The notes under the pieces: generated by a model | The model's input: only the letters and a program-made list of their open reading frames with translations | What the model was told of the DNA's origin: nothing | Databases searched by the model: none | Made by a program: the position numbers and the translations under genes | In this document: in pieces, positions 7,776 through 40,755 of the stretch | Position numbering within the stretch: the first letter of the stretch is position 1 | Layout of the letters: each line of letters opens with the position of its first letter | Assembly: GCA_028279985.1 (NCBI GenBank) | Contig: JANQMR010000039.1 | Span: 1,656 to 65,655 of the forward strand | DNA length: 64,000 nt | From: Woeseiaceae bacterium | GTDB taxonomy: Bacteria > Pseudomonadota > Gammaproteobacteria > Steroidobacterales > Woeseiaceae | Reading direction: 5' to 3'

Positions 7776-7820
7776 TGGCCGCAATCATACTGCACCTGAT
7801 CGGTGGCGGCTCTTTAAAAC

Positions 7821-7864: not shown

Positions 7865-7910
7865 AGGCGCGAATCCTGTCGCGGCCTTCGGGAACCGCGC
7901 ATTTGACGAA

Positions 7911-10545: not shown

Positions 10546-10554
10546 CCGCTTCGA

Positions 10555-11208: not shown

Positions 11209-11528
11209 TTCCGGGTACCTGACTCTCCGGGTGGGGGCTTTGTTCCTGGTGGCAGATCTGTGGCGGGTGGAGGCTCGGTTCCCGGTGGAGGCTCTGTGCC
11301 GGGAGGGGGCTGCGTCCCTGGCGGAGGTTCTGTCCCTGGTGGAAACACCGTCCCCGGAGGGGGCTCCGTTCCGGGCGGAGGCTCTGTCCCTGGTGGTGGT
11401 TCCGTCCCCGGTGGAAACTCTGTTCCTGGCGGAAACTCTGTTCCTGGTGGAGGCTCCGTTCCGGGCGGGGGCTCGGTCCCCGGAGGGGGTTCAGTGCCCG
11501 GTGGAAACTCCGATCTCGACGAGGCCAT
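11205..11528 (-). CDS. Hypothetical proline-rich hexapeptide-repeat protein (about 15 x PPGTEP)
   Basis: ATG at 11528 lies 19 nt after the aspS stop, and the TGA overlaps the GTG of the downstream hydrolase. The body is an 18-nt repeat whose variation sits almost only at every third base. No signal peptide. The reading strand is inferred from context only. Confidence 0.45.
   Translation of the reverse strand: MASSRSEFPPGTEPPPGTEPPPGTEPPPGTEFPPGTEFPPGTEPPPGTEPPPGTEPPPGTVFPPGTEPPPGTQPPPGTEPPPGTEPPPATDLPPGTKPPPGESGTRK
11230..11517. repeat. 18-nt x about 16 tandem repeat (ggt gga ggc tcN gtN ccN on the plus strand)
   Basis: Sixteen contiguous 18-mers. Differences between units are concentrated at positions 3, 6, 9, 12, 15 and 18. 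Confidence 0.95.
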
Positions 11529-11546
11529 TGTCCGGCGTCGCCGGTC

Positions 11547-23870: not shown

Positions 23871-24023
23871 CGGGTTGTTGTTTCTTCTGTGGCGGGACGA
23901 GTGCGGCCGCGGGACCGCGAAACCGGGCGTATTGTGGAGCAAAGCCTGCCGTTTCGCAAAACCCGCCGCGGCGGCCGGCAAGGCGGCATCCATGTCCGTC
24001 GGCCGTCGTGGCGGGTCGCCGTA

Positions 24024-25808
24024 ATGCGCGACCAAATGAACGGCGAAATAAGCGACAATCCATGGATGGAACAGGCGACCGGGGAAAGCTTCGGCAAGCG
24101 CACGATTCGCACCAGCCGCGAGACGCTGTTGCAAATGGCGGTAGACGAGCCCGATCTGAGCTGGCGCGTTCTGAGCACGCTGAACCTGTTCCGGCTGCTG
24201 ATCGCCGCCGGGCTGCTCGGCCTGTTTTTCGTCACCGGCGAGCCTTATGTCTTCGGCGACCGCTACCCGGCCTTGTTCTCGGCGACCGCGGCGGGTTACC
24301 TAGTGTTTGCGGCCCTGTCGGGCGTCGGGCTCAATCAGCGCTGGGTGCCGGCCTACGTCCAGGGTGTCGGGCAGATCCTGGTCGATATCGTCGCGGTTAC
24401 CGTACTGGTACACGCCAGCGGCGGCGTGGGCACCGGCCTGGGCGGGCTTCTATTGGTTTTCGTCGGCGCGGGTAGCCTGGTGCTGCCGATGCAGTATCCG
24501 GCGGCGCTGGGCGCGGTCGCGACCATTGCAATCCTCGGGGAGCAGCTTTTCTCGCAGCTCGGCGGCTACGGCGCGAACTACCCGGCCGCGGGCCTCTTGT
24601 GCGCGATCATATTCACGATGTCGCTGGCCGCCAGGCCGCTGGCCAGGCGCATACAGGCCAGCGAGGCCTTGGCGCTGCAGCGCGGCGTGGATCTCAAGAA
24701 CCTCTCGGAGCTCAACGAATACATCGTTCAGCACCTCCGCGAGAGCATCGTCGTCATCGATCGCGACGATTCGGTCCGGCTCAGCAATGCGTCCGCGGCG
24801 CGACTGCTGGGGATCAACGAGCCGCTGCGCGGTATGCCGGTCTCGGGCCTGTCGGCGCCGCTCGCCGAGTACCTCGGCCGGTGGCGGCACCGGCACGAGC
24901 TCTCGTCGCATCCCGAGTTTACGCTGATCACCGCCGGCAACAACGCGCGTATCACCGCACATCTGGCGCCGCTCGGCAAAGACGGCACGCGGCTGGGACC
25001 GGTGCTGATATTCCTCGAAGACGCGAGCCTGATGAACGCCCGTGTGCAGCAATCCAAGCTCGCCTCGCTCGGCCGGCTGAGCGCCAGCATTGCGCATGAG
25101 ATACGCAATCCGGTGGGCGCGATGAGCCACGCCGCGCAACTGTTGCGAGAGTCGGAGGGCTTGAAAGACGACGATCGACGGCTGACCGACATCATCCAGA
25201 CACACTCGGAGCGGGTCAGCCACATCATCGACAACGTGCTGCAGTTGTCGCGGCGCGAATCGGGCCGTCCGGAGCAGCTCATGCTGAAACCCTGGCTGGA
25301 GGACTTCGCCGTCGAGTTCACCCGCACCTTGGGGCTGCAAGAGGGCGAGCTGACGGTCGCAGACGCCGACGAGGGTATCGAGGTGCGCATGGATCGCAGC
25401 CACCTGCGCCAGGTGCTGTGGAATCTCTGCGACAACGCGGTCAAGTATGCCAGCGAGACCGGCGGTATCCTGGTGGAGCTCGAGGCGGGCCGCCTCGACG
25501 GAGCCGGCCGGCCTTACCTCGAAGTGCGGGACCACGGCCGCGGGATCGAAGACACCACGGCCGAGAAGATCTTCGAGCCGTTTTTTACCGCACAGTCCGG
25601 CGGCACCGGACTGGGGCTTTATATCTCGCGGGAACTTTGCGAATTGAATCGCGCGACCCTTTTGCACCTTGACCGGCCGGGCGGAGGCAGTATCTTTCGT
25701 ATCGTTTTTGCCGATTCCGAACGCTGGGAGGCTCAGGAGGGCGCCGCAGGAACGGCTGGCCGGGGCAACAGCGAGACGGGATCGACCGTGAGCCAGGACC
25801 GAGAATGA
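24024..25808 (+). CDS. pilS: Sensor histidine kinase PilS (start uncertain: 24024, 24066 or 24135)
   Basis: Multi-TM N-terminus, H-box SIAHEIRNP, and an HATPase with DNAVKY...DHGRGI...GGTGLGL. The stop overlaps the pilR start (ATGA). The upstream part of track ORF 23619.. is antisense to sucC. Confidence 0.8.
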
Positions 25809-27109
25809 CCCGCCCTCTTGCCCTCGTCGTCGACGACGAACCCGACATCTGCGAGCTGCTGGCGATGACTCTCGGGCGCATGAATATCGATACCGAGACC
25901 GCAGGCGACGTCGGCGGCGCGAAGGGTCGGCTCGGCGCAACACGTTTCGACGTGTGCCTGACCGACATGCGGCTGCCGGACGGGGACGGCCTGGAGCTCG
26001 TCGAATGGATGCAGTCCCACGCACCGGACGTTCCGGTCGCGGTGATCACGGCGCACGGCAACATCGAGACGGCCGTGCAGGCTTTGAAGCTGGGTGCCTT
26101 CGACTTCCTGTCCAAGCCGCTGGATCTCAACCACCTGCGCAACATCGTCGAGAACGCGCTGAAGCTCGATCGGGGCGGGGACAACAACAAAGCCGGCCTG
26201 CTCGGCGACTCCGCGCCGATGCAGGCGCTTCGCGACATGATCGAACGCGTGGCGCGCTCCCAGGCGCCGGTGCATATCTCGGGCGAGTCGGGCACCGGCA
26301 AGGAGCTCGTAGCGCGGTTGATTCACGAGAGCGGTCCGCGGGCCGAGGGGCCGTTCGTGCCGATCAACTGCGGCGCGATCCCGGCGGAACTGATGGAGAG
26401 TGAGTTTTTCGGGCATCGAAAGGGCAGCTTTACCGGCGCGGTCAGTGACAAACAGGGGCTGGTGCAGGCCGCGGCCGGTGGTAGCTTGTTTCTGGACGAA
26501 ATCGCCGACCTGCCGTTGGCGATGCAGGTGAAACTCCTCAGAGTGATTCAGGAAAAGTCCGTACGTCCGGTGGGCGCCTCGCGCGAAGAGCCGGTCGATG
26601 CGCGGATCTTGTCGGCGACGCACCGGAACTTGTCTGAGATGGTGGCAACCGGCGAGTTCCGAGAAGACTTGTTCTATCGAATCAACGTTATCGAGCTGCG
26701 CGTCCCCGCACTGAGAGATCGCGGGAACGACGTGCTGCTGCTCGCCGAGCACCTACTGAAGAAACTGGGGTCCCGCGCAACGCTGGACGAAGGCGCCCGG
26801 CACGAGCTGCTGAGCTATGCCTTCCCCGGCAACGTCCGGGAGCTCGAAAACACGCTTGAACGAGCAGTGACGCTTTGCTCAAGTGGCACCATTGGCGAGA
26901 CGGATTTGAACTTGAAGTCGAACGAGATCGGCGGCGGCCGAAGCGTTGCCGCCACCGGGGATCTCGGAAGTCGCATCGACGACGTGCAGCGGCAAGCGAT
27001 CGTCGATGCGCTGGAGAAAACTCGCTACAACAAGACAGCGGCTGCGAAGCTGCTGGGCTTGACGTTACGGCAACTTAGATATCGTATCCAGAAGCTAGAG
27101 ATCAAATGA
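25805..27109 (+). CDS. pilR: Sigma-54-dependent response regulator PilR
   Basis: Receiver domain (VVDDE...DMRLPDGDG), AAA+ domain with GESGTGKE and the sigma-54 contact loop GSFTGA, and a C-terminal Fis-type HTH (NKTAAAKLLGLTLRQLRYRI). Confidence 0.9.
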   Translation: MTRPLALVVDDEPDICELLAMTLGRMNIDTETAGDVGGAKGRLGATRFDVCLTDMRLPDGDGLELVEWMQSHAPDVPVAVITAHGNIETAVQALKLGAFDFLSKPLDLNHLRNIVENALKLDRGGDNNKAGLLGDSAPMQALRDMIERVARSQAPVHISGESGTGKELVARLIHESGPRAEGPFVPINCGAIPAELMESEFFGHRKGSFTGAVSDKQGLVQAAAGGSLFLDEIADLPLAMQVKLLRVIQEKSVRPVGASREEPVDARILSATHRNLSEMVATGEFREDLFYRINVIELRVPALRDRGNDVLLLAEHLLKKLGSRATLDEGARHELLSYAFPGNVRELENTLERAVTLCSSGTIGETDLNLKSNEIGGGRSVAATGDLGSRIDDVQRQAIVDALEKTRYNKTAAAKLLGLTLRQLRYRIQKLEIK

Positions 27110-27201
27110 GCCGTGACCTCGTTTGTGACGCCGGACACGAATCTCGTTGCCGCGGGCCTGTATAAGTTTCTAGTCATTTGAAAAACAAGGCAATTTGATC
27201 C

Positions 27202-29151
27202 GTGCACCACGAGACCGCGCGCGAATCTCTGCTTTTCGGCGCGATCGTCGCGACAATCCTCATGCTCGGGTGGTTCGTCTACGAACCGGCATTGGACAGC
27301 GTCTTTTTGTTCGACGACGAGCCGAATCTCCACCAGCTCGAAGCGGTCACCGATTCCGAGTCGGCGCTCATGTTCACCCTATCGGGGGCGGCTGGCCCTT
27401 TGGGACGACCATTGGCTCTTGCGACATTCTTGCCTCAAGTAGACGCGTGGAATGACGAGAATGCCGCAGCGTTCTTGATTATCAATGTCCTGATACACCT
27501 CTTTAACGGACTGCTCGTTTATCACCTGTTCCTAAGGCTGGCCCGGACTCAAAAGGCAACTAGTCCGAACGATCAGTGGGTCGCAATCGGGGGTATGGCG
27601 TTATGGCTATTCATGCCGCTGCTCGCTTCCTCATCGCTCATGATCGTCCAACGGATGACCACGCTGAGTGGGACATTCATGTTAATCGGTCTCAATGCCT
27701 ACCTAGCTGCTCGATCGCGGATAGGGATGAGTCCCGCTTTGGCACTGACCGGGATGAGCACTGCGCTCGTTGCTGCCACTTCTCTAGCGGTTCTCACGAA
27801 AGAGAACGGTGCACTGTTACCTACGCTAGTGCTCATGCTCGAAGCCACGCTGCTCTCGCAACCTAGCGGCGTTCGCGTCGCGCACTGGCGGGCGTGGCAA
27901 ACGACGTTTCTTGTCGCGCCAACACTAGTGATTTTGCTATTCGTCGCGAGCAAGTTGCAATACGCCGACTTCCTGGTCGAAAGACGTGGCTACGACGGGA
28001 TTGATCGCCTGGTTACGGAGGCGCGAATACTCTTTGAGTATCTCTACAATTCATTTATACCGAACCCTGAGAAACTCGGTCCCTTCCACGACGACCGGAG
28101 GATCAGCGTTACACTCGCCGCTCCATCTACTTTGGTCCCGGTAGCAGGCTGGCTGACAGCAATCAGCCTCGCGCTAATGTTTCGCAGGAGATATCCGGTA
28201 GCTGCTTTCGCGATACTCTGGTATCTCGCGGGACATGCGCTCGAGTCCACGACGCTGCCGCTTTATCTTTACTTCGAGCATCGGAATTACATGCCACTAC
28301 TCGGGCCTGTGTTCGCGGTGGCTAGTCTATGCTGCGCTGTGAATCTTCGGTACCGCAAGATCGCCCGGTTCGCTCTGCCGCTTTACATCATCGTCAACGC
28401 AGGAGTACTGTACAGCGTTACTTCCCTTTGGGGCATGCCGTTGAACGCCGCGGCCTACTGGCACCACAATGCACCGGCGTCAGTCGCCGCGGCGAGTCAC
28501 CTTGCGATTCAGCAGTCCCGATACATGGCGCTGGCGGTAGGAATTCTCACTCTCAGAGAGTTCGCCCTACGAAATCCCGAGCATGCCTACCTGCGCTTGC
28601 CGGAGCTGAGCCTGTCCTGCAAGGTAGCACGGGGTGCAGATCACTCCGAAACCGTACAATACCTCAGTGATACTCTGCCCACGGTGAGATTCAGTCACTC
28701 GGTCGGCTCAATGCTCGATTCACTAATGCTTACGATCGCGACAACCGACTGTAACGGCGTCGACCTCGACGTTGGACGCAAACTGGCAGACACATTGATG
28801 AGCAATCCGCGCTATCGTAAAAGCCCGAGATTCGGCAGTTATTACCACCAGCTTCTGGCGCAGATCGCATGGGATAGCGGCGATCCCGAGGCAGCCACTA
28901 CAAATCTCGAGCAGGCGAGGAACTTGCTATCCACCGATCAGTTGCATCGACAATTCGTCGGAATTCTCGCCGCGCAGAACCGGTTCGACGAAGCCCGAGA
29001 GTATCTCGCTGTTGCTGAAGGTGAGCTTCCGTCGCACTTGCTGCGAAATTATGCCGGACGACTAAGATTGAGAAGCCTCGGAAGACACATCGACACGTTG
29101 GAAGCGCAGGCCGGCGAGCAGGTCCCCAATGCCGGGCGCATGGACCACTGA
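27202..29151 (+). CDS. Polytopic GT-C-fold glycosyltransferase, TMTC/PMT-like, with C-terminal helical-repeat (TPR-like) domain (paralog 1)
   Basis: 649 aa, GTG start. TM1 is followed by FLFDDEPN (DD at 27313-27318). It also has GRPLALATF, NVLIHLFNGLLV, many TM helices, YFEHRNYMPLLG and a soluble helical C-terminus. These motifs match the family signature I recall for TMTC/DUF1736-type GT-C enzymes. Confidence 0.65.
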   Translation: MHHETARESLLFGAIVATILMLGWFVYEPALDSVFLFDDEPNLHQLEAVTDSESALMFTLSGAAGPLGRPLALATFLPQVDAWNDENAAAFLIINVLIHLFNGLLVYHLFLRLARTQKATSPNDQWVAIGGMALWLFMPLLASSSLMIVQRMTTLSGTFMLIGLNAYLAARSRIGMSPALALTGMSTALVAATSLAVLTKENGALLPTLVLMLEATLLSQPSGVRVAHWRAWQTTFLVAPTLVILLFVASKLQYADFLVERRGYDGIDRLVTEARILFEYLYNSFIPNPEKLGPFHDDRRISVTLAAPSTLVPVAGWLTAISLALMFRRRYPVAAFAILWYLAGHALESTTLPLYLYFEHRNYMPLLGPVFAVASLCCAVNLRYRKIARFALPLYIIVNAGVLYSVTSLWGMPLNAAAYWHHNAPASVAAASHLAIQQSRYMALAVGILTLREFALRNPEHAYLRLPELSLSCKVARGADHSETVQYLSDTLPTVRFSHSVGSMLDSLMLTIATTDCNGVDLDVGRKLADTLMSNPRYRKSPRFGSYYHQLLAQIAWDSGDPEAATTNLEQARNLLSTDQLHRQFVGILAAQNRFDEAREYLAVAEGELPSHLLRNYAGRLRLRSLGRHIDTLEAQAGEQVPNAGRMDH

Positions 29152-29170
29152 GGCCAGGAACGATGGTCGG

Positions 29171-31123
29171 ATGATTGCGCAGCGGAAATCCATGGTGACC
29201 GCCCTCACAGTAGGCATCCTGCTGTCGGTAGGCTGGCTCTTGTATCGCCCGGGGACAGGCGGCGTTTTCCTGCTTGACGATTTCGATACGCTTGGCGGAC
29301 TCGCAGTAATCGAGGATCTGGGATCGGCAATCGATTACATCGGATCTTTCAACGAAGGTCCCTTGGGCCGCCCACTCGCAATGGCCAGCTTCGCTCTCCA
29401 GGCTGAGAGCTGGGATGAGGATCCGGCTTCGTTCATCCGAGCCAATACTGCGATTCACTTGTTTAATGGCCTTTTGGTATTCCTTTTCCTTAGCCATTTG
29501 TGCCGGGCACTGCGCTTCGACGATACCGACTCTCGATTCGTTGCGATCGCAGCGACGGCGCTTTGGATAGTCATGCCGCTACTAGCATCGGCGAATCTGT
29601 TGATTGTCCAACGTATGACTACACTGAGTGCGACGTTTGTCCTAACCGGACTGGCTGGTTACCTGAGCCTGCGCCGCAGAATCAAACACAGTACTGATAT
29701 GTCGCTGTTGCTCCTGGGACTGGTTCTGGCATTGACAACCTTGCTTGCTGTGCTCTCCAAGGAAAACGGTGCACTTCTGCCGACACTTGTCCTCGTGTTG
29801 GAGCTCACATTACTTAGTCGGCCAGAGTCCGTACCTACGGTTAAATGGCGATCCTGGATGGCTGTCTTTCTCGTACTGCCGACGGTCGTTATTGCCGTCT
29901 ACCTCGCTTTTAGAATCCCATATAGCGAGTCGGTGCTTGCCAGGCGAGACTTCGATACAGGTGAGAGACTATTGACTCAGGCGCGTGTTCTATGGGAGTA
30001 CCTCTCTCATGCGCTACTTCCGAGACCTACCGAGCTAGGTCCTTTTCACGACGCGTACCCAGTAGCCAGGTCCCTTACCGATCCAGCAACCGCTGCGGCG
30101 GCCTGTAGTTGGGTGCTGCTTGCTGTTGGCGCATTCGTTTGGCGCAGACGTTACCCTGTTGCCGCTTTCGCCGTACTCTGGTATCTCGCTGCTCACTCGA
30201 TCGAATCGACGACCATACCGCTGGAACTCTATTTCGAGCATCGTAATTACGTACCCATTATTGGCCCGTTGTTTGCCCTTTGTGCCGTGGCTGCCCGCGT
30301 CCCGACCGGATACCAATATAGTGCGCGCACTGGCATCCTCGCATACATCTTCGTCAACGCCGGGATACTGTTCAGCGTGACTTCACTATGGGGACAGCCG
30401 ATGGTCGCTGCAGGCAATTGGTATGCAAATGCACCGAATTCTATGCGCGCCGTTTCAAACCTCGCCAATCGCCAAATGCTCGAGATGGGCCCGATGGTCG
30501 GCGCAATAACACTCGGGGATTTCGCGCAAGCTCATCCCAAGCATTCTTACTTGCACATTCCGCAACTGGCGGTAGCATGCAACGCTAGGCCGGACTTGGA
30601 CTACACGGAAGACGTAGAACGTTTGCTAGAAGTACTTCCAAAGACCGGATTCTCATATACAGCAGGTGAGATGCTGGATACTCTGCAATCCGTCATAACC
30701 GACGAACCTTGTAAGGGAGTTGACAGCGAGGTCATCGCCAACCTTGCAGCAGCACTGATGCGGAACCCACGTTATCGAGTAAACCGCGTGTATCGCCAAT
30801 ATCACGAGCAATTGCTGGCAAGACTCGCCTGGGACGACGGCGACGTGGAAAAAGCGATCGAGCACTTGCACAATGCGTTCGAAATATGGCCGCATGCACG
30901 CGTTAACACAATGATGATCACCGCACTAGTGAGTATTGGCAAATTCGAGGAAGCACGAGAGTTTGCTGCAGAAGCAGAGCGGCGCTTGCCGCGACACCCG
31001 CTCAGGCGTCGGATCTCGCGCAGGGAACTCGACGGCCTGAGTGACTATATCGACTCCGCCGAAAGAGACGCTCGAACGAGCGATGAATCGTCAGGTGCCG
31101 GGCTGGCACACAATAATGACTAA
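29171..31123 (+). CDS. Polytopic GT-C-fold glycosyltransferase, TMTC/PMT-like, with C-terminal helical-repeat domain (paralog 2)
   Basis: About 650 aa. ATG at 29171 (AGGAA 10 nt upstream), with an alternative ATG at 29129 that overlaps paralog 1. It carries the same motif set: FLLDDFDT (DD at 29276-29281), GRPLAMASF, NTAIHLFNGLLV and YFEHRNYVPIIG. Long blocks are identical to paralog 1 (VQRMTTLS, KENGALLPTLVL, RRRYPVAAFA). Confidence 0.65.
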   Translation: MIAQRKSMVTALTVGILLSVGWLLYRPGTGGVFLLDDFDTLGGLAVIEDLGSAIDYIGSFNEGPLGRPLAMASFALQAESWDEDPASFIRANTAIHLFNGLLVFLFLSHLCRALRFDDTDSRFVAIAATALWIVMPLLASANLLIVQRMTTLSATFVLTGLAGYLSLRRRIKHSTDMSLLLLGLVLALTTLLAVLSKENGALLPTLVLVLELTLLSRPESVPTVKWRSWMAVFLVLPTVVIAVYLAFRIPYSESVLARRDFDTGERLLTQARVLWEYLSHALLPRPTELGPFHDAYPVARSLTDPATAAAACSWVLLAVGAFVWRRRYPVAAFAVLWYLAAHSIESTTIPLELYFEHRNYVPIIGPLFALCAVAARVPTGYQYSARTGILAYIFVNAGILFSVTSLWGQPMVAAGNWYANAPNSMRAVSNLANRQMLEMGPMVGAITLGDFAQAHPKHSYLHIPQLAVACNARPDLDYTEDVERLLEVLPKTGFSYTAGEMLDTLQSVITDEPCKGVDSEVIANLAAALMRNPRYRVNRVYRQYHEQLLARLAWDDGDVEKAIEHLHNAFEIWPHARVNTMMITALVSIGKFEEAREFAAEAERRLPRHPLRRRISRRELDGLSDYIDSAERDARTSDESSGAGLAHNND

Positions 31124-31141
31124 GCCTGAGAGGATTTTGAG

Positions 31142-31993
31142 ATGGCGACGCTATCGATAATCATACCGGCCAAGAACGAAGCCATCACAATCGCCGACAT
31201 CGTCGCGCGAGCGCACTCACGATTCGGCGACGCAGAGATCATCGTCGTCAACGATGGATCGGACGACGAGACGGCGCGACTAGCCGCCAACGGAGGCGCG
31301 ACCGTCGTCACTCATCCCGTGTCGTTAGGCAACGGAGCTGCAATAAAGAATGGCGCCAGGGCGGCGACGGGTGACACACTGGTAATGATGGATGCAGACG
31401 GCCAACATCAACCGGAGGAGATCGTTAAACTGCTCCAAAAACTTGACGAAGGATTCGATATGGTAGTCGGTGCACGCGATTCTGGCTCGCACGCCAATGT
31501 CGGCCGCCTAGTCGCCAACGGATTCTATAATCGTTTCGCATCGATGATCAGCGGCCAAACTATACCGGACCTGACATCTGGATTCCGCGCAGTTCGCGCT
31601 GTCCATTTCAACAGGTTTCTGCACCTATTGCCGAACGGCTTTTCGTATCCAACAACAATCACGATGGCCTTCCTACGATCCGGTTTTCCTGTCGGGTTCG
31701 TTCCGATTAGCGCAAAAAAACGGAGAGGAAGAAGTCATATCAGGCCAATTCGAGATGGCCTACGTTTCCTCGCGATTATTTTTAAAGTGGCAACACTATA
31801 TTCACCGTTGAAGATCTTCCTGCCGATCAGCGCCGCGTTCTTCCTGACCGGTATCGGCTACTACGTATACACCTATCTCATGGTCGGTCGGTTTACGAAT
31901 ATGAGCCTCCTCGTTTTGAGTGCTTCCGTGATTGTCTTTCTGATTGGATTGATCTCGGAGCAGATTACCGCTCTTACATTCAGCAAGTCGTGA
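31142..31993 (+). CDS. GT2 polyprenyl-phosphate glycosyltransferase (GtrB/Dpm1/ArnC-like)
   Basis: 283 aa with IIIPAKNE, VVNDGSDDET and the DAD motif (MDADGQH), then two C-terminal TM helices, the architecture typical of lipid-phosphate-sugar synthases. Strong RBS GAGAGGA. Confidence 0.8.
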   Translation: MATLSIIIPAKNEAITIADIVARAHSRFGDAEIIVVNDGSDDETARLAANGGATVVTHPVSLGNGAAIKNGARAATGDTLVMMDADGQHQPEEIVKLLQKLDEGFDMVVGARDSGSHANVGRLVANGFYNRFASMISGQTIPDLTSGFRAVRAVHFNRFLHLLPNGFSYPTTITMAFLRSGFPVGFVPISAKKRRGRSHIRPIRDGLRFLAIIFKVATLYSPLKIFLPISAAFFLTGIGYYVYTYLMVGRFTNMSLLVLSASVIVFLIGLISEQITALTFSKS

Positions 31994-31996
31994 CCG

Positions 31997-32722
31997 ATGC
32001 TCGATCGACTAAGGAAGTTCGCCGCTCGCGTTCGGAAGACGCCGTTACATCCACAATGGTTCGCATTCCTGCATTCGGACAGAGATCTACAAGAAATTTG
32101 CAAGGACCTCTCCGGCATGGTCCTTGACGTCGGAAGTGCGGAAGGTCGTCCTCGTCGTTACCTGTCTGAAAGCGCTACTTACGTCGCTCTCGACTACTAC
32201 GAAACGGCGAGCGAATGGTACTGTACGCGACCCGACGTGTATGGAGACGCGCAAGCGCTGCCCATCGCCAGTGCCTCCATCGACCACGTGCTGCTATTGA
32301 ACGTGCTTGAACACCTTCCCCGACCGGATCTGTGCCTACAGGAACTAAACCGGGTTCTCGAGCACGGCGGTAGCCTGACTATACAGGTCCCGTTTCTGTA
32401 TCCAGTCCACGACGCCCCGCTCGATTTTCATCGCTGGACTCGCTATGGACTGGTACAGGCCGCAGGTCGATCCGGCTTTGAGGTCGTTTTGGAAGGTGCG
32501 ATCGGTCACCCGCTGGAGACTGCCGCATTGAACCTGAACATTGCTATCGCCAAATCCACCCTCAATTGGATCGAAAAAAAGAGCCCTTTGGCGATACTGG
32601 TTGTTGCGGTACCTCCCCTTGTCTTTCTCATAAACTGCCTTGCCTGGGTTGTGGCGGCTGTAAGCCCAGATGATGACATGATGCCTCACGCATACCGAAT
32701 GCGCTGGATCAAGAGCTTCTAA
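31997..32722 (+). CDS. Class I SAM-dependent methyltransferase with C-terminal membrane anchor
   Basis: Motif I VLDVGSAEG and a Methyltransf_11-like core (IDHVLLLNVLEHL...LNRVLEHGGSL), followed by a hydrophobic helix LAILVVAVPPLVFLINCLAWVVAAV. It starts 3 nt after the GT2 stop. Confidence 0.7.
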   Translation: MLDRLRKFAARVRKTPLHPQWFAFLHSDRDLQEICKDLSGMVLDVGSAEGRPRRYLSESATYVALDYYETASEWYCTRPDVYGDAQALPIASASIDHVLLLNVLEHLPRPDLCLQELNRVLEHGGSLTIQVPFLYPVHDAPLDFHRWTRYGLVQAAGRSGFEVVLEGAIGHPLETAALNLNIAIAKSTLNWIEKKSPLAILVVAVPPLVFLINCLAWVVAAVSPDDDMMPHAYRMRWIKSF

Positions 32723-33672
32723 GCCTTCCGGTGCGCGCCCGCGAGCGTTGCAATTGCGACGAAAACAAGGTCGACAATTAGCGACCACAGCCGACTGAAG
32801 ATAGTGAGAACCAGCGCAACCTCTCGCGGCAGGATTACTGACAGCAGCACCAACTGGCTTGCGTCTCTCACGCCGAGCCCGCTGGGAACACATGGGGCAG
32901 CCATACCGATTACACCAGACAGATTGACGGCACCGACGATAAAAATGAGGTCCGCGGCGGATACGGAACCCCATACGGCAAGTGCCATAAAGTAGTACGC
33001 GACCCCAGCCAGCAGGCTACCGATCGCGTAGAGTAACAGAGATCGCAAAGTCGCCTTGGAGTTCGTCGCCAACTCAGCGTAGGCTTCTTGGCCCCGTAGC
33101 ACTTTGTAGGAGAATCTGATCACGCGGTTGAATATCGCCGGTATCAGCAGGATAGCAAACACCAGTCCGGCACTCAGCACGGCCAACCCGATTCGTCCGT
33201 TGAACTGAGAAGTCAGGCGACCATCCAATCCGAGGAGCAAGAGTGAGACTGCTGCAATCGCGACTATCTGCGTGCCAGCCTCAAGGACAGAGGCAACCGT
33301 GAGGCGGCTTTTGGAAATCCCAAGGTCCCGCGCAAGAAGCACGCGACCGGCGATCCAAGGAACAGTACCGGGAATGTAGCGAGCCATCCAGGACCGCGCA
33401 TAGATCGATGCAAGCACGCTAAATGCAGGTATGTCGGTTGCGCCAAGATCCCGCAGAATTCCCCGCCAAATATAGACTCCCCAGTAACGAAATCCCAGAG
33501 AGAAGCAGGCGCCTATGAGTAGCGGCCAGGGATCGAGCCGTAACTCTCGGAGGATTTCATAATCTAGCTCCTGGAGAAACAGCGCAAGGAACACGACAAT
33601 TCCGGACAACAGCGCGGCGCGCAGCCAGAATTCTGTGCTGTGGCGTTTAGTCCTAGTCGAGGAGTCGGCCAA
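32719..33672 (-). CDS. Flippase-like integral membrane protein (LPG-synthase-TM / UPF0104 family)
   Basis: 317 aa with about 8 TM helices. The pattern (FRYWGVYIWRGILRDLG..., SWMARYIPGTVPWIAGRVLLA) resembles the lysylphosphatidylglycerol-synthase TM/flippase-like family. TTG start at 33672 is uncertain. Confidence 0.55.
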   Translation of the reverse strand: MADSSTRTKRHSTEFWLRAALLSGIVVFLALFLQELDYEILRELRLDPWPLLIGACFSLGFRYWGVYIWRGILRDLGATDIPAFSVLASIYARSWMARYIPGTVPWIAGRVLLARDLGISKSRLTVASVLEAGTQIVAIAAVSLLLLGLDGRLTSQFNGRIGLAVLSAGLVFAILLIPAIFNRVIRFSYKVLRGQEAYAELATNSKATLRSLLLYAIGSLLAGVAYYFMALAVWGSVSAADLIFIVGAVNLSGVIGMAAPCVPSGLGVRDASQLVLLSVILPREVALVLTIFSRLWSLIVDLVFVAIATLAGAHRKA

Positions 33673-34849
33673 ACGCGTCGCTCACTAGCTGCCGCTGTTC
33701 ATCGATCCTCGATGCCAACAACATACGTAGTCGTGGCGCCTCTCGAAGCGCCCTGTCGATGGCATCTAGTACAATTTCCTCCGCCTCATCCAGCAGCAGA
33801 TCCTCAATCGGAAAAGCATACTCTTCGAGGCCCAGTTGGTCGAAATAGACCCTGCCTTTGTCGACGTAGAAAAAGCTCAGGCTCGGCGTGCATCCACTAG
33901 TAGCAATGATACTGGAGTGGAGCCTTACGCCAATCATGAGCCTCGCTGCCGCCAATAACGCCCTAAGTAGACGCGGCGAGACGACATCGTCTCGCAAGAC
34001 CTTCAGGTTGATCTGCCGATCCAGTTCACCGGTGATCTGCTCGCAAAAGGATACATCCTCACCCATGTGCATGGGAACCACCAATATGTTGGGTGTGAAC
34101 TCGGCCATTGCCTCGATGGTCATGCTCAGGGCCGCTCTATACCGTTCGTTCCTGGAATCGGGACCCTCTTTAAAAAAGACCTTGCGATATCGGTAAGGCA
34201 GGACTCCACCCGTCGAATAGTGAAACCAGTTTCTTGGCGCGAATGCAATAAAGTCTTCAAGAAACGACTTGGTTATGCCGAGACGATCGAGCACCGCAAG
34301 ATCGTCGGAACTGAAGGGACCTGGCTTCGGTAGAATCGCCGGGTCGTAGGCCGCATCGATTTTGGATGGCTTCACTCCCCAGCTTCTCAACTTCTCGTAC
34401 GATTCGTCGTCGCGAAGTATGAACTTCCGGGTACGATTCACTATGAAAACAATCAATCGCTTGCTGACCGCGGATCCCGTGGGGCCAATGCCTTGGAATA
34501 CGCCGTATATGTTCGGATTAAAGGTGCGCAGCCAGAGAATCTTGAGGCACCAGTACCACAACGTAGCCTTGTTCGTATAGTCCTTGAGATACTCACCTCC
34601 CCCCCAGTACACAACATCGGAGCGTTTCGCCTCGCGACCGAGTCTTATCCAGTCCAACAGGTTGATCGATTGCACGTCGGACCTCAGAAAGTCGATCCCG
34701 AGCCAACGTCGATCTCGCTCGGCTTGCTCTGAAACTCCCGTTATCTCCGCACCGTTGTGCCGACGTCTCACCAGTTCGATGACACCTTCCGCAATCGCAC
34801 GATCGCCACGATTCTTCGCAAGATCACTGTTGATCAGTAGTACCCTCAC
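33653..34849 (-). CDS. Polysaccharide pyruvyl transferase family protein
   Basis: 398 aa. The N-terminal MRVLLINSDLAKNRGDRAI motif and GGGEYL are typical of the PS_pyruv_trans family (CsaB/WcaK-like). The GTG start forms a GTGA overlap with the GT4 stop. Confidence 0.7.
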   Translation of the reverse strand: MRVLLINSDLAKNRGDRAIAEGVIELVRRRHNGAEITGVSEQAERDRRWLGIDFLRSDVQSINLLDWIRLGREAKRSDVVYWGGGEYLKDYTNKATLWYWCLKILWLRTFNPNIYGVFQGIGPTGSAVSKRLIVFIVNRTRKFILRDDESYEKLRSWGVKPSKIDAAYDPAILPKPGPFSSDDLAVLDRLGITKSFLEDFIAFAPRNWFHYSTGGVLPYRYRKVFFKEGPDSRNERYRAALSMTIEAMAEFTPNILVVPMHMGEDVSFCEQITGELDRQINLKVLRDDVVSPRLLRALLAAARLMIGVRLHSSIIATSGCTPSLSFFYVDKGRVYFDQLGLEEYAFPIEDLLLDEAEEIVLDAIDRALREAPRLRMLLASRIDEQRQLVSDAFGRLLD

Positions 34850-36114
34850 CGCCCGCGCACTCCAGCGGCAGACTGCAGCAAATCCAGGTACTTCCGGCTA
34901 ATAGCTGGCCAGTCAAAATCAGCAGCAAGGCGTTTCGCCTCTTCCGCCTCGCGGGCAACGACGGCCGGCTCGGCATTGACATACCGGATGATAGCTGTCG
35001 CTATTGCCGCCGTATCTCTTTCCGGCACAATGGTGCCACAGCGACCATCGAGTATCTCCTGCGCGCCACTGACGTCGGTTGCGACGATCATTTTTCCGAA
35101 CGCAAGAGCTTCCATCAATGCCACAGGCAGACCTTCCGAGTCGCCCATGCTGTCGATGACTGATGGCAACACGAATAGTTCGCTGGCCTGAAAAAGGGCT
35201 TGCTTTGACTCACCGGTAACGTGACCCGTAAAGGTAACGTCACCGGACAACTTGAGACCCATCACTTGGTCCGCGAGCTGCCCCATAAGCTGACCGTCGC
35301 CTGCGATTACCAGCTGTATCTCACGACGAATATCCTCCGCGAGCGTAGAGTATGCATCGATTAGTACGTTGAATCCCTTTTTCTCGACCAGTCGCCCCAG
35401 CGCGAGAATGATTCTGCGAGATGCGTCTATCCCGCAGCCGTGCAAAGCCTCTCTGACGGTATGATCCGGAAGTCTGTCGGCGCCCATACCTGTGCCCATC
35501 GGTAGAATTGTCAGTTTGTGCGCGAATCTTTCTTCCCACTCTTTTTCGTCAAAGAAATCAATCAGTTTTCTAGCTGTTTGATTAGAGACCGCCGTAAAGG
35601 CCGAAGCATGCCGCAGGACGCTCCGAATTAGTCGTTTCGCCAAGGGAATACTCCGTAGTACCGAGACGTCCGAGGCATGTGTGGTAAACACGAAAGGAAT
35701 ACCTGAACGTCTGCTGACACTGTAAGCTATTACAGCTTGCGGCATGAACCAGTGCGCGTAGATGAGCCTTGGGTGAATCTCACGACACAACAAAGCCAGC
35801 GCCCTTCGCTGTGCCAAGAGAAAAAATGGAATCAACAGATACCGCGCCGGCTTCTCCCTGAGCGCTGGGAGAATTCCACGACCGGTCAGTGTTTCGAGTT
35901 TATGTGGCCAAAAATAATGATAACGAACTTCGGTGAATCCTTCGCGACGAATGAGCGACGGTAGAGATCCATCATATGTGTTGTGAGGAACGAGAACGTA
36001 GACGTCGAGCGAGGGGTCTTCTGCGAGCATTGCCGAGACCTGTTCGAAGACAAACGCCGGTACCGGATCGTCGGGTCGAGCGGGAAACGTCGTTGTGGAG
36101 ACAATGATCTTCAT
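34846..36114 (-). CDS. Glycosyltransferase family 4
   Basis: 422 aa with a GT-B fold. The C-terminal EX7E region is SEGLPVALMEALAFGKMIVATDVSG. ATG at 36114. Transcribed divergently from pilA1. Confidence 0.8.
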   Translation of the reverse strand: MKIIVSTTTFPARPDDPVPAFVFEQVSAMLAEDPSLDVYVLVPHNTYDGSLPSLIRREGFTEVRYHYFWPHKLETLTGRGILPALREKPARYLLIPFFLLAQRRALALLCREIHPRLIYAHWFMPQAVIAYSVSRRSGIPFVFTTHASDVSVLRSIPLAKRLIRSVLRHASAFTAVSNQTARKLIDFFDEKEWEERFAHKLTILPMGTGMGADRLPDHTVREALHGCGIDASRRIILALGRLVEKKGFNVLIDAYSTLAEDIRREIQLVIAGDGQLMGQLADQVMGLKLSGDVTFTGHVTGESKQALFQASELFVLPSVIDSMGDSEGLPVALMEALAFGKMIVATDVSGAQEILDGRCGTIVPERDTAAIATAIIRYVNAEPAVVAREAEEAKRLAADFDWPAISRKYLDLLQSAAGVRGR

Positions 36115-36156
36115 TGATTTAGCGGCGTCGTCGAACGACGACTAGCGGACGAAATC

Positions 36157-36206
36157 TGTCACATTTTGACAATGGCTGACAGTTTTGTCGGATCACGACC
36201 GTGACA
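36157..36206. promoter_or_regulatory. Candidate PilR enhancer (UAS): clustered TGTC/GACA inverted repeats
   Basis: TGTCA-cattt-TGACA (36157-36171), TGACA-gttt-TGTCg (36177-36190) and a further TGACA (36202-36206), 75-125 nt upstream of the sigma-54 promoter. Confidence 0.35.
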
Positions 36207-36281
36207 TCGATCACAGCCAGCGGCTGGCTTTTCGGGTACTTTACCAATACAAACAGCATCTTAGCAACGATTGTCAACTAT

Positions 36282-36297
36282 TGGCACAGCGTTTGCT
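36282..36297 (+). promoter_or_regulatory. Sigma-54 (-24/-12) promoter of pilA1
   Basis: TGGCAC-agcgt-TTGCT is an exact match to the TGGCAC-N5-TTGC(A/T) consensus, 60 nt upstream of the pilA1 ATG. The sigma-54 activator PilR is encoded upstream. Confidence 0.8.
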
Positions 36298-36357
36298 TTA
36301 TCACGCGTACGGGCAAACTCGCCGTATTAATTTAGATACTCTCACGGAGACTGAGAA

Positions 36358-36789
36358 ATGAAGAAGCAGCAGGGTTTCACACTCATCGAACTGATGATCG
36401 TCGTTGCGATCATCGGTATTCTGGCCGCGATCGCGATTCCGGCCTATCAGGACTACACGATCCGCGCGCAGGTATCCGAAGGCATCAATCTGTCGGCCGG
36501 CGCCAAAACCGCTGTCACCGAGTATTACCAGGATGTCGGCTCACTACCAGCCGACAACCCGCAAGCCGGTATCGCTTCAGCTGGCGAGATCCTCGGCAGG
36601 TATGTCACCGGTGTGGCAGTCGCAAATGGCGTTATTACAGTAACCTACGGCTCCCAGGCCAACCCGATCATCGCCACCAGACAAGTTGTTCTGAGGCCGG
36701 ACACGACCAACCCGGGCAGCGTAACCTGGCAGTGCGAGACGGCCGGTGGCATGGAGAACAAGCACGTTCCGGCGTCTTGCCGCAACTAG
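36358..36789 (+). CDS. pilA: Type IVa major pilin PilA (paralog 1)
   Basis: MKKQQG/FTLIELMIVVAIIGILAAIAIPAYQDY: short leader, Gly-1/Phe+1/Glu+5. C-terminal disulfide loop C...C (WQCETAGGMENKHVPASC). GGAG RBS. Confidence 0.92.
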   Translation: MKKQQGFTLIELMIVVAIIGILAAIAIPAYQDYTIRAQVSEGINLSAGAKTAVTEYYQDVGSLPADNPQAGIASAGEILGRYVTGVAVANGVITVTYGSQANPIIATRQVVLRPDTTNPGSVTWQCETAGGMENKHVPASCRN

Positions 36790-36826
36790 TACGCACCTGA
36801 ATCAACACTAGTTGCTGAAAGCGGGA

Positions 36827-36860
36827 GGGGCTCCGGCCGCGTCGTTGGAGCCCCTTAGTT
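36827..36860 (+). terminator. Putative intrinsic terminator/attenuator after pilA1
   Basis: GGGGCTCC-N12-GGAGCCCC (8-bp GC stem) followed by TTAGTTCTCC. The weak U-tract makes partial read-through into pilA2 plausible. Confidence 0.45.
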
Positions 36861-37032
36861 CTCCTCATCAATCGCGCTTATCGGCCGGGGACCATTGCAA
36901 CTGCCCATGATCCCACGCTCAACTCGCGCGAGTTCTGCGAACCTACAGCCGAGGCTCGGACCCAAGGTTTCGTTTAGAATACTTCACCAACCCGTCGAAA
37001 CGGCCGGCAGTTCGGAGAACAGGAGCTGAATA

Positions 37033-37527
37033 ATGCGAAATGCCGCAAAAGGGTTCACGTTGATCGAACTGATGATCGTCATCGCGATCATCGGTATTCT
37101 TGCGTCCCTCGCCGTCTCCGCCTACCAAACGTATACCGTTCGCGCGCAGATCGCTGAGGGGTTGAACATGGCGGCCGCCGCAAAAACACCCATTGTCGAT
37201 GCTTTCAACGTCAACGGCACACCGGCTGCCGACCGGACCGAAGCCGGCCTGACCCCGCTCGCAACAGATACCCAGGGCAACTATGTGGCTTCGGTCGATG
37301 TCGTGGATGGACGTCTGGACATTGTGTTCGGCAACAACGCGCACTCGGCTATTTTCGGCGACCGTCTTTCGATAACACCCTACACGACACCCGGGGGAAC
37401 CATCGCTTGGCGCTGCGGCGCTGCGGCGCCGCCGAGCGCAACGCCACTGGACGGTGGCGGCGTCACTTCCCAACATCTGGTTCCGACCGTCGAGACCCGC
37501 TATCTCCCCGCCGCCTGCCGGGACTGA
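37033..37527 (+). CDS. Type IVa pilin (paralog 2)
   Basis: MRNAAKG/FTLIELMIVIAIIGILASLAVSAYQTY. 164 aa with a long C-terminal Cys-Cys loop (WRCGAAAPPSATPLDGGGVTSQHLVPTVETRYLPAAC). AGGAG RBS. Confidence 0.88.
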   Translation: MRNAAKGFTLIELMIVIAIIGILASLAVSAYQTYTVRAQIAEGLNMAAAAKTPIVDAFNVNGTPAADRTEAGLTPLATDTQGNYVASVDVVDGRLDIVFGNNAHSAIFGDRLSITPYTTPGGTIAWRCGAAAPPSATPLDGGGVTSQHLVPTVETRYLPAACRD

Positions 37528-37690: not shown

Positions 37691-39409
37691 ATGGCAGCAA
37701 CGGCTTCACAAACCAATCTTGCTGGGCTACCTCGCCGGCTGGTGCAGGACGGCATTATTGCCGAGGACAGGCTCCAGGAAGCCACCGAAGCCGCCCGTAA
37801 GGACAAGCTGCCGCTCGTCGCCTATCTGGTCAACCAGGAACTCGCCGAGGCCCGCGCGATTGCGGTTGCGGCCTCACACGAATTCGGCGTGCCACTACTG
37901 GATCTTGATGCCATCGAGCTCGAAATCGACCTCATCCGTACGGTCGATCAAAAGCTGATCAACAAACACCGGGTGCTACCACTGGTCAAACGCGGCCAGC
38001 GCTTGTTTCTGGGTATCGCCGACCCGACCAACCTGCAGGCCATCGACGAGATCAAGTTCCAGACCAGCCTCAGGATCGACCCGGTTGTCGTCGAACAGGA
38101 CAAGCTCGAGGAGCGCATCATCAAGGCGATCGAGGCTGTCGATACGAGTATGCCGGGCCTCGAGGACGACGATTTTGACCTCGAGAACCTCGAGGTGGGT
38201 CCAGACGAGGAAGAGACTGAGGACGTTCACCGCGACGATATCGAGGACGCGCCGGTTGTCCGTTTTGTCAACAAAATCCTGCTCGATGCGATCAAACGCG
38301 GCGCATCGGACGTGCATTTCGAGCCCTACGAGAAGTACTTCCGCGTGCGGACACGCCTGGACGGTGTCTTGTCCGAGGTGGCACAACCGCCGGTCGCGCT
38401 TGCGAACAAGGTCTGCGCGCGGCTTAAGGTCATGTCGCGAATGGACATCGCTGAGCGCCGCGTACCACAGGACGGACGCATCAAGATGCGTTTGTCCAAG
38501 AATCGCGCGATCGATTTTCGAGTCAACACCTGTCCGACCTTGTTCGGCGAAAAAATCGTGTTACGTATCCTCGACCCGTCGAGTGCCAAGCTCGGTATCG
38601 ATATGTTGGGTTACGAGGAACATCAAAAAGACCTGTATATGAAACACCTGATGAAGCCCTATGGCATGATTCTGGTGACAGGTCCGACCGGTTCAGGTAA
38701 GACCGTGTCGCTGTACACGGGCCTCAACATCCTGAACACAGTGGATCGCAATATCTCGACAGCCGAGGATCCTGCCGAAATCAACCTGCCCGGCATCAAT
38801 CAGGTCAATGTGAATCCGAAGGTCGGCCTGACGTTCGCGTCTTCACTCAAAGCCTTTCTGCGCCAGGACCCGGACGTGATCATGGTAGGTGAGATTCGCG
38901 ATCTCGAGACGGCCGAGATAGCTATCAAAGCCGCACAGACCGGCCACCTGGTACTTTCCACGCTGCACACCAACGATGCCCCGCGCACTTTGACGCGCAT
39001 GGTGGACATGGGCGTGAAGCCCTATGCGATCGCAACCTCAGTTAGCCTGATCATCGCCCAACGTCTGGCGCGGCGGTTGTGCGACAACTGTAAGGAGGTT
39101 CGAGACGTGCCGCGCGAGGCCTTGGAAAAGGAAGGATTCGACGCCGGTGATCTCGACGACGGTTTGACAGTCTTTGGGCCGAAAGGCTGTAGACAGTGCA
39201 ACGACGGCTACAAAGGCCGGGTCGGCATCTTTCAGGTCATGGAGGTCTCGGAGACGATGGGCCGGATCATCATGGAAGGCGGCAACGCGATGCAGATCGC
39301 CGACCAGGCGGTCGCTGAAGGCGTTATCGATTTGCGCAGGGCTGGTTTGAACAAAGTCAAGGAAGGGGTTACCAGCCTGGAAGAGGTTAACCGGGTTACA
39401 ATCGAATAG
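37691..39409 (+). CDS. pilB: Type IV pilus assembly ATPase PilB
   Basis: 572 aa with an N-terminal GSPII-like domain, Walker A GPTGSGKT, and Asp/His boxes. A CxxC...CxxC-type tetracysteine cluster is present (CDNC...CRQC). Confidence 0.95.
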   Translation: MAATASQTNLAGLPRRLVQDGIIAEDRLQEATEAARKDKLPLVAYLVNQELAEARAIAVAASHEFGVPLLDLDAIELEIDLIRTVDQKLINKHRVLPLVKRGQRLFLGIADPTNLQAIDEIKFQTSLRIDPVVVEQDKLEERIIKAIEAVDTSMPGLEDDDFDLENLEVGPDEEETEDVHRDDIEDAPVVRFVNKILLDAIKRGASDVHFEPYEKYFRVRTRLDGVLSEVAQPPVALANKVCARLKVMSRMDIAERRVPQDGRIKMRLSKNRAIDFRVNTCPTLFGEKIVLRILDPSSAKLGIDMLGYEEHQKDLYMKHLMKPYGMILVTGPTGSGKTVSLYTGLNILNTVDRNISTAEDPAEINLPGINQVNVNPKVGLTFASSLKAFLRQDPDVIMVGEIRDLETAEIAIKAAQTGHLVLSTLHTNDAPRTLTRMVDMGVKPYAIATSVSLIIAQRLARRLCDNCKEVRDVPREALEKEGFDAGDLDDGLTVFGPKGCRQCNDGYKGRVGIFQVMEVSETMGRIIMEGGNAMQIADQAVAEGVIDLRRAGLNKVKEGVTSLEEVNRVTIE

Positions 39410-39438
39410 ACCGAGCCGCGTACAGACGGACTACAGAA

Positions 39439-40656: not shown

Positions 40657-40755
40657 GCATATCACCGTCCCCTGCCCGTTTGCATTACAACGGCGTTCGG
40701 AGGAAACTCCGGACGCCGTTTGCGTTTGAGCCAAAGGAAGTACCGGAACTCCAGC

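Follow-up and report, generated by a model that had tools for sequence, protein, structure and literature searches.

In a 64,000-nucleotide (nt) stretch of a Woeseiaceae bacterium genome (assembly GCA_028279985.1, contig JANQMR010000039.1, positions 1,656 to 65,655; hereafter the window), we examined an island of seven open reading frames (ORFs; 27202-36114) between pilR, the gene for a sigma-54-dependent response regulator, and pilA1, the first of two type IV pilin genes. The positions, order, and strands given for these ORFs in a preliminary description of this DNA were all borne out. Glycosylation of pilins is the most likely function of the island and is well supported by its gene context. 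The locus is probably a type IV pilin O-glycosylation system built on a two-gene core, with a cassette that would decorate a lipid-linked sugar before it is flipped across the membrane. The core joins a polytopic protein with a predicted glycosyltransferase C (GT-C) fold and a C-terminal tetratricopeptide repeat (TPR) domain, present here as two paralogues (GTC1 and GTC2), to a family 2 glycosyltransferase (GT2). It is widespread beside pilin genes and experimentally unstudied.

The neighborhoods of 86 loci were surveyed (80 best genomic loci and 6 from exact look-ups). In 41 loci, spread over many gamma- and betaproteobacterial lineages, a pilin gene was found on the same strand no more than 1.5 kb upstream of the GT-C gene; in 53 loci, a pilin gene lay no farther than 12 kb away. 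Directly downstream of the GT-C gene, 49/86 loci carried a GT2 gene whose product was 55 to 77% identical to the window copy. Unbiased clustering of the neighboring ORFs ranked GT2 (48 loci) and pilin (44) first, followed by family 4 glycosyltransferases (GT4; 32), methyltransferases (15, with homologues also adjoining the module in locus L082), and PilS/PilR (12). The order pilA(-pilA)-GTC(-GTC)-GT2-GT4, with further genes, recurred in Competibacteraceae, Methylococcales, Thiotrichaceae, Dyella, Alcanivorax, Microbulbifer, Rhodocyclaceae, and Acinetobacter. For instance, Acinetobacter kookii (L081:7512-17923; FMYO01000008.1) has pilin-GTC-GT2, an ABC exporter (ABC_membrane + ABC_tran), a GT4, three further GT2 genes, and Glf (UDP-galactopyranose mutase). 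This set has the appearance of a full pathway for a lipid-linked oligosaccharide, perhaps with galactofuranose, in an organism that can be cultivated. Other neighbors included Wzx-like proteins (9 loci), DegT, AsnB-like proteins, epimerases, many methyltransferases, sulfotransferases, and one AT3-SGNH acyltransferase. Homologous GT-C+GT2 blocks in other genomes are thus linked to pil genes. The system of synthase, flippase, and GT-C pilin enzyme proposed in the preliminary description agrees with this linkage, and the LPG_synthase_TM protein fits the flippase role; the linkage is not exclusive, since some loci lie beside oadAB. A few database titles among the surveyed loci are doubtful: L023 is titled "Candidatus Saccharibacteria" despite a proteobacterial-type pilin-GTC-GT2-GT4 arrangement, L031 is a 5.3-Mb Methylocaldum "plasmid," and the title of L046, "uncultured Enterobacteriaceae," also looks wrong.

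The features of the locus, in window coordinates, are as follows.

23619..25808, plus strand: pilS, sensor kinase, as context and regulator (Pfam 6TM_PilS, HisKA, HATPase_c)
25805..27109, plus strand: pilR, sigma-54-dependent response regulator (Pfam Response_reg + Sigma54_activat + HTH_8)
27202..29151, plus strand: GTC1, TfpW-like polytopic GT-C protein with C-terminal TPR domain, 649 amino acids (aa) (DD at residues 38-39; weak TPR hits)
29129..31123, plus strand: GTC2, paralogous TfpW-like GT-C/TPR protein; start probably at 29171, giving 650 aa (public gene call on an identical contig) (AlphaFold2 model, fold matches, family alignment A1)
31142..31993, plus strand: GT2, polyprenyl-phosphate sugar synthase of the GtrB/DPM1/ArnC type, 283 aa (Pfam Glycos_transf_2, 2.6e-27)
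31997..32722, plus strand: S-adenosylmethionine (SAM)-dependent methyltransferase with C-terminal membrane anchor (Pfam Methyltransf_11, 3.2e-14)
32719..33672, minus strand: LPG_synthase_TM-family polytopic protein, candidate flippase (PF03706, 3.7e-15)
33653..34849, minus strand: polysaccharide pyruvyl transferase, CsaB/WcaK-like (Pfam PS_pyruv_trans, 1.5e-19)
34846..36114, minus strand: GT4 (GT-B fold), cytoplasmic glycosyltransferase; may instead start at 36030, 394 aa (public gene call on the identical contig) (Glycos_transf_1 / Glyco_trans_1_4, ~1e-30)
36282..36296, plus strand: sigma-54 (-24/-12) promoter of pilA1 (exact TGGCAC-N5-TTGC)
36358..36789, plus strand: pilA1, type IVa major-pilin-like, 143 aa, candidate acceptor (Pfam Pilin + N_methyl)
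36825..36856, plus strand: 13-bp GC-rich hairpin after pilA1, possible terminator or attenuator (fold -28.7 kcal/mol; z = -1.9, marginal)
37033..37527, plus strand: pilA2, second type IVa pilin, 164 aa, candidate acceptor (Pfam Pilin + N_methyl)
37691..41652, plus strand: pilB, pilC, and pilD, assembly ATPase, platform protein, and prepilin peptidase; pilD corrected to 40756-41652 from the public gene call (T2SSE, T2SSF; Peptidase_A24 in the identical contig)

The GT-C/TPR proteins and the GT2 synthase

GTC1 and GTC2 were 47% identical over 566 residues. The membrane domain of the two proteins matched no Pfam model at E ≤ 0.01, including PMT, PMT_2, and DUF1736, and weak TPR matches lay at the C terminus (residues 547-624). 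Of the PMT_2/DUF1736-plus-TPR architecture that had been expected, the TPR portion was recovered and the PMT_2/DUF1736 portion was not; the families expected for the GT2, methyltransferase, LPG_synthase_TM protein, pyruvyl transferase, and GT4 were all matched in the Pfam search. The AlphaFold2 model of GTC2 (24 aligned sequences as input; predicted local distance difference test [pLDDT], 85; predicted template modeling score [pTM], 0.84) had a helical membrane domain to about residue 420, followed by an all-helical repeat domain. In a Foldseek search with the full-length model the TPR domain swamped the result, and a model of the transmembrane (TM) domain alone was used instead (pLDDT, 76.6; pTM, 0.83). 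Against the PDB, this model matched only GT-C enzymes at high probability, with Pmt4 at the top (probability, 1.0; TMq, 0.49), several STT3 structures (0.95 to 0.99), and ArnT and ALG6 lower. Both proteins are predicted to have a GT-C fold.

A DD pair lies just after the first TM segment, in the first periplasmic loop (D38/D39 in GTC1, D50/D51 in GTC2), and was invariant in the two alignments examined (A1 and A2). It was present in 402/471 sampled family members and in ∼118 of 138 diverse representatives. Further invariant loop residues of GTC2 were R81, K211/E212, H356/E359, and the motif YFEHRNY at 368-374. The family comprises 5,319 clusters (50% identity; E ≤ 1e-30), whose members are labeled "hypothetical," "TPR repeat protein," or occasionally, in some JGI records, "protein O-mannosyl-transferase." A search of plasmids (tblastn) returned no match, and no relative of the GT-C family was found on viral contigs. 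PADLOC gave no match for any island protein and therefore no support for a defense-system label. The results on viral contigs and PADLOC lend no support to the phage receptor masking proposed in the preliminary description, nor do they argue against it. The locus leads to a very large, unstudied family whose genes accompany those for a lipid-sugar synthase and pilA in numerous environmental bacteria, with Acinetobacter, Microbulbifer, Dyella, Methylotuvimicrobium, and Marinobacter as cultivable genera that carry it.

The GT2 matched only ArnC (8e-16), an archaeal DPMS (1e-12), and GtrB (2e-9) in the PDB. Its top NCBIfam matches were AglJ, PpgS, a dolichyl-phosphate (Dol-P)-hexose transferase, ArnC, and PgfS, none of which reached its cutoff; against the AglJ model (TIGR04182) it scored 136.6 bits (1.1e-39) where the cutoff is 325, and it is not a member. 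Two TM segments (209-227 and 254-272) are C terminal. Periplasmic GT-C enzymes use polyprenyl-phosphate sugars that are made by GT2 synthases and flipped across the membrane, as in the Gtr, Arn, and PMT systems.

The locus in close relatives

The flanking order nadE-sucDC-pilSR and pilA-pilA-pilBCD-coaE-secA was common to three metagenomic relatives (L084, L082, and L001), and the content of the pilR-pilA interval differed among them. L084, a very close relative, had GTC+GT2 only. L082 had GTCa-GTCb-GT2-methyltransferase-GT4-LPG_synthase_TM-sulfotransferase-methyltransferase-methyltransferase plus amino-sugar genes, and L001 had one GTC, a GT2, a methyltransferase, a GT4, and other genes. The GT-C+GT2 core occupied the same position in L004, L005, and L024. 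Since L084 carries the bare GTC+GT2 pair, the methyltransferase, GT4, pyruvyl transferase, and LPG_synthase_TM genes form a swappable add-on cassette. Between the window and L084, PilB and PilC were 96% identical and PilS was 91% identical, with values of 62% for GTC2, 77% for GT2, and ∼78% for each pilin. GTC1 and GTC2 matched GTCa and GTCb of L082 one to one at 61% each, versus 47 to 48% crosswise, which indicates that the GTC duplication is old.

The preliminary description had called the island a lower-G+C block, and both measures that we used agreed with this. G+C per kb was 0.52 to 0.56 over 27 to 37 kb versus ∼0.63 to 0.70 in the flanks, and G+C at third codon positions (GC3) was 0.56 to 0.65 in the seven island genes versus 0.79 to 0.84 in nadE, pilS, pilR, pilC, pilD, and secA. 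The composition anomaly ends only at ∼41 kb because pilA1, pilA2, and pilB have intermediate GC3 (0.70 to 0.72). A GC3 dip was present in the close relatives as well, in weaker form. As the same description had noted, there was no integrase or transposase among the annotated genes from nadE to secA and no meaningful repeat flanking the island in a repeat scan; no tRNA gene lay within 26 kb of the island.

The locus is thus no recent insertion but a hypervariable site of fixed position, where the core is resident and the decoration genes are exchanged. Replacement of alleles or of the cassette by recombination would fit the composition shift, which is stronger in the window. The earlier proposal of horizontal acquisition holds at most for alleles or the accessory cassette and not for the core, which lies at the same pilR-pilA position in all six of the loci named above. 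Like an O-antigen locus, it keeps its position and its core, its alleles evolve quickly, and its decoration genes can be exchanged.

Proposed pathway and competing explanations

The cassette proteins include a methyltransferase with a single TM segment (198-216), an LPG_synthase_TM protein with about eight hydrophobic segments, and a pyruvyl transferase that matched the CsaB NCBIfam model at 2e-32, below the cutoff. LPG_synthase_TM genes adjoined the module in ∼18 loci, which is consistent with a flippase role. A small flippase of the GtrA/EamA type was not matched among the seven island proteins (Pfam) and did not recur among the annotated neighbors. Likewise, no initiating phosphoglycosyltransferase, Wzy, or ligase was found in the island (Pfam), and none recurred among 144 further neighbor ORFs; therefore, the GT2 product is the only evident lipid-linked start for the GT4.

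In the pathway that we propose, the membrane-anchored GT2 would transfer a sugar from its nucleotide donor to polyprenyl monophosphate at the cytoplasmic face of the membrane. The GT4 would add a second sugar, and the pyruvyl transferase and the SAM methyltransferase would decorate the lipid-linked glycan on the cytoplasmic side. The LPG_synthase_TM protein, as the candidate flippase, would then turn the glycan to the periplasmic face, where GTC1 and GTC2 would move the short decorated glycan, perhaps en bloc, onto Ser/Thr residues of the pilins, with the DD loop serving catalysis and the periplasmic TPR domain holding the acceptor. We place the cassette before the flip because the GT4, pyruvyl transferase, and methyltransferase need cytoplasmic co-substrates, a candidate flippase is present, and there is no other initiator. 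The two old GT-C paralogues would probably share the work between PilA1 and PilA2. Across the surveyed loci, tandem GTC genes accompanied tandem pilin genes (7/9 loci versus 3/33; Fisher P = 1.4e-4). As to the sugar, genes of the Epimerase_2 family (UDP-GlcNAc 2-epimerase) adjoin the GT2 gene in L014, L018, L021, L022, and L062, which hints at N-acetylmannosamine (ManNAc) in some versions of the locus. CsaB-type pyruvyl transferases act on ManNAc.

Pilin glycans alter antigenicity and the function of the pilus, and they also change how sensitive cells are to pilus-specific phages; any phage-related benefit of the island would be hypothetical. If the proposed pathway is correct, the locus would establish a modular system of pilin glycosylation whose decoration cassettes can be exchanged, would give LPG_synthase_TM proteins their first glycan-related role, and would provide protein glycoengineering with new GT-C enzymes. 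With regard to the candidate acceptors, the C-terminal disulfide loop of PilA2 spans ∼34 residues, is rich in Ala, Pro, Ser, and Thr (CGAAAPPSATPLDGGGVTSQHLVPTVETRYLPAAC), and resembles the low-complexity sequons of bacterial O-glycosylation systems; the loop of PilA1 is short.

It is important to note that several observations weigh against this pathway, including two on the cassette and on pil-free loci that are taken up with the alternatives below. The Foldseek E-values were weak (best, 2.7e-3), and therefore we assign a fold and not a family. The TM domain had no sequence match in Pfam or the PDB, where GTC2 and family-profile queries returned TPR proteins only. The tandem association of GTC and pilin genes was drawn from two to three lineages only, and L084 and L001 each have one GTC and two pilins, which makes a one-enzyme-per-pilin scheme less convincing. 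In the GTC-adjacent pilins, no conserved acceptor Ser/Thr was found; Ser and Thr were diffusely enriched in the alpha-beta loop, and a C-terminal Ser was lacking. Moreover, the GT-C genes of the window lie upstream of the pilins with an opposite-strand operon in between, and the usual place is directly downstream of pilA.

A possible, if unlikely, alternative is that two systems stand side by side. GTC1/GTC2 and GT2, possibly with the methyltransferase, would put a single sugar or a homopolymer on the pilin with a polyprenyl-phosphate monosaccharide as donor, in the manner of the Gtr and TfpW routes, and the GT4-pyruvyl transferase-LPG_synthase_TM operon could serve another glycan, making or modifying an unrelated envelope glycan. 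These three genes do lie on the opposite strand in their own overlapping operon, and the operon is absent from L084, which keeps GTC+GT2 by pilA. The pyruvyl transferase, in addition, accompanies the module in just three loci, and the known GT-C partners of GtrB-type synthases (Gtr, Arn, and PMT) take monosaccharide donors. However, an operon with no initiating phosphoglycosyltransferase, polymerase, or exporter would make no glycan alone. GT4 and LPG_synthase_TM genes also recur beside the module in unrelated lineages, and in L082 both are on the same strand, right after GT2 and the methyltransferase. We favor a single pathway in which the cassette modifies the lipid-linked sugar made by the GT2.

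That pathway would also need a different acceptor if the GT-C+GT2 module acts on a periplasmic or surface protein, lipopolysaccharide (LPS), or exopolysaccharide (EPS), and its proximity to pil genes reflects co-regulation or a recombination hotspot. We consider this improbable. In its favor, ∼14 Woeseiaceae loci have a second kind of GTC+GT2 pair next to oadAB with no pil genes, and pilins therefore need not be the sole acceptors. In many metagenome-assembled genomes of this family, the order is oadA-oadB-GTC-GT2, and an M20 peptidase gene of opposite orientation comes next (L008, L009 [7068-12900], L013, L016-L020, L038, L043, and L055). Furthermore, 33/86 loci had no pilin within 12 kb (three of these, L004, L005, and L024, carry pilSR, and several contigs are short), and the cassettes look like O-antigen or EPS sets (DegT, AsnB-like proteins, epimerases, and Wzx-like proteins). 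On the other side, a same-strand pilin gene stands immediately upstream in 41 loci from many families, far more often than the ∼0.2% per gene roughly expected by chance on the assumption that a genome has a few pilin genes. A protein acceptor is suggested by the TPR domain and by the fold matches to PMT and STT3, and the GT-C proteins and pilins diverge rapidly together between close relatives.

It is highly improbable that the ∼650-aa TPR membrane proteins are nonenzymatic pilus assembly or chaperone factors like TfpY/TfpZ with unrelated sugar genes as neighbors; public annotation calls them just "tetratricopeptide repeat protein" or "hypothetical," and their TM domain matches no Pfam glycosyltransferase model, but the predicted GT-C fold, the invariant DD in the first periplasmic loop, the many invariant charged and aromatic loop residues, and the tight coupling to a polyprenyl-phosphate sugar synthase gene (49/86 loci) all argue for enzymes.

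Known systems and further features of the window

In the literature that we found, only two types of enzyme glycosylate type IVa pilins, TfpO/PglL and TfpW, and no paper paired a pilin GT-C enzyme with a GtrB-type synthase. TfpW, from Pseudomonas (para)aeruginosa group IV (Pa5196/PA7), has 646 aa, 11 TM segments, and a periplasmic TPR domain at the C terminus; its DDx motif in periplasmic loop 1 is essential. It O-glycosylates pilin from a polyprenyl-phosphate-D-arabinofuranose (D-Araf) donor. Its gene directly follows pilA, and homologues have been reported by pilA in several species; the donor genes (DPPR synthase, DprE1, DprE2, and GtrA-like) are unlinked to pilA in P. aeruginosa. By this published description, GTC1 (649 aa) and GTC2 (650 to 664 aa) are like TfpW in size, polytopic plan, DDx, TPR domain, and pilA linkage. 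In 41/86 loci of the GT-C family, the gene is found immediately downstream of pilA; in the window and its Woeseiaceae relatives, it is located in the pilR-pilA interval instead. The locus also differs in its two paralogous enzymes, in their position upstream of pilA, and in its GT4, methyltransferase, pyruvyl transferase, and LPG_synthase_TM genes. Donor supply is different as well, in that a GtrB/DPM1-type GT2 is adjacent. D-Arabinose pathway genes were absent from the island, and none recurred among the 144 neighbor ORFs (64 kb of this genome was covered).

The TfpW loop-4 motif YX6PFX7P was found in 0/471 sampled family members and 0/147 diverse representatives. A Y-x6-P half-motif occurred at the invariant Y291 in 184/449 (∼40%), never with F next, and the family signature is YFEHRNY. 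Homology searches with GTC2, Microbulbifer, and Acinetobacter queries returned only unnamed or "TPR repeat" proteins, and the published accessions of TfpW (AAM52060.1) and its homologues (e.g., WP_130134296.1) were not among the 16 clusters inspected. Strict TfpW membership of GTC1 and GTC2 is thus unproven, as the likeness is by description and the loop-4 motif is absent. The system had been put forward as undescribed and as distinct from the TfpW route. It is not fully undescribed, since its GT-C proteins share the architecture of TfpW, and the distinction applies to the donor supply and the decoration cassette and not to the GT-C enzyme itself.

The GT2 synthase with C-terminal TM helices, a flippase, and an extracytoplasmic GT-C enzyme are the parts of the Gtr (GtrA/GtrB/GtrC), Arn (ArnC/ArnEF/ArnT), CsbB/GtcA/YfhO, and PgfS/PgfM systems, to which the locus is alike in these respects. 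Here the acceptor is probably a protein (pilin) and not O-antigen, lipid A, or teichoic acid. A small GtrA, ArnEF, or GtcA flippase was not found among the annotated neighbors, which leaves LPG_synthase_TM, Wzx-like, and ABC proteins as candidates, and the extra cytoplasmic GT4, methyltransferase, and pyruvyl transferase suggest that the lipid-linked sugar is extended before flipping. The protein O-mannosyltransferases PMT (GT39) and TMTC1-4 are alike in fold (best match, Pmt4), in the plan of a GT-C domain with luminal or periplasmic TPRs (TMTC), and in monophosphate donors made by DPM1-type GT2 enzymes. They are unlike in sequence (no PMT, PMT_2, or DUF1736 Pfam match and no PDB PMT match), and the proteins described here are bacterial and pilin linked.

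AglJ, which starts the dolichol-monophosphate-linked oligosaccharide of the archaeal Agl N-glycosylation pathway, is the best NCBIfam match of the GT2, yet far under the cutoff. The proposed logic would be alike, in that a monophosphate-linked sugar is extended by soluble glycosyltransferases, methylated (AglP), flipped, and moved by a GT-C enzyme (AglB/AglS); Agl makes an N-linkage to S-layer protein, versus the O-linkage to pilin proposed here. A bolder reading, which we offer tentatively and think doubtful, is that the locus represents a third, widespread proteobacterial route to pilin glycosylation. A TfpW-like GT-C enzyme would act as an oligosaccharyltransferase for an oligosaccharide on polyprenyl monophosphate, decorated with methyl, pyruvyl, or sulfate groups, an LPG_synthase_TM protein (MprF-flippase-like) would flip it, and GT-C paralogues would be matched to pilin paralogues through their TPR domains. 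Such a route would have the logic of the archaeal Agl and eukaryotic Dol-P pathways, with a start by a GtrB/DPM1-type GT2 and extension in the cytoplasm.

TfpO/PilO and PglL are Wzy_C-family pilin glycosylation enzymes that use O-antigen units linked to undecaprenyl diphosphate; tfpO lies directly after pilA, and the TfpO-type pilin glycan blocks some pilus-specific phages. They too act on type IV pilins but form an unrelated protein family. No Wzy_C domain was found in any island protein (Pfam) or recurred among the neighbors, in agreement with the earlier statement that the island differs in composition from the TfpO route. The cyanobacterial pilin "Ogt" was rejected as a relative, as it is an unrelated GT41 enzyme.

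The sequence TGGCACAGCGTTTGC at 36282-36296, ∼60 nt 5' of pilA1, is an exact sigma-54 consensus and the sole exact match in the 64 kb, which bears out the prediction that pilA1 is sigma-54 dependent. Scans for sigma-70 promoters and terminators were set aside because their counts were at or below chance. The methyltransferase (plus strand) and LPG_synthase_TM (minus strand) genes converge and share 4 nt (32719-32722), with no space for a terminator between them, and the LPG_synthase_TM and pyruvyl transferase genes share 20 nt (33653-33672). The pilS ORF that begins at 23619 encodes 729 aa and the PilS proteins of relatives have 554 to 562 aa; by this comparison, the start was probably called too early, and the true one would lie ∼500 nt downstream. 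Near the start of the window, tRNA-Arg(ACG) and tRNA-Ser(GCT) genes (275-476) and a low-G+C stretch (1-1000; 0.53) are unrelated to the island.

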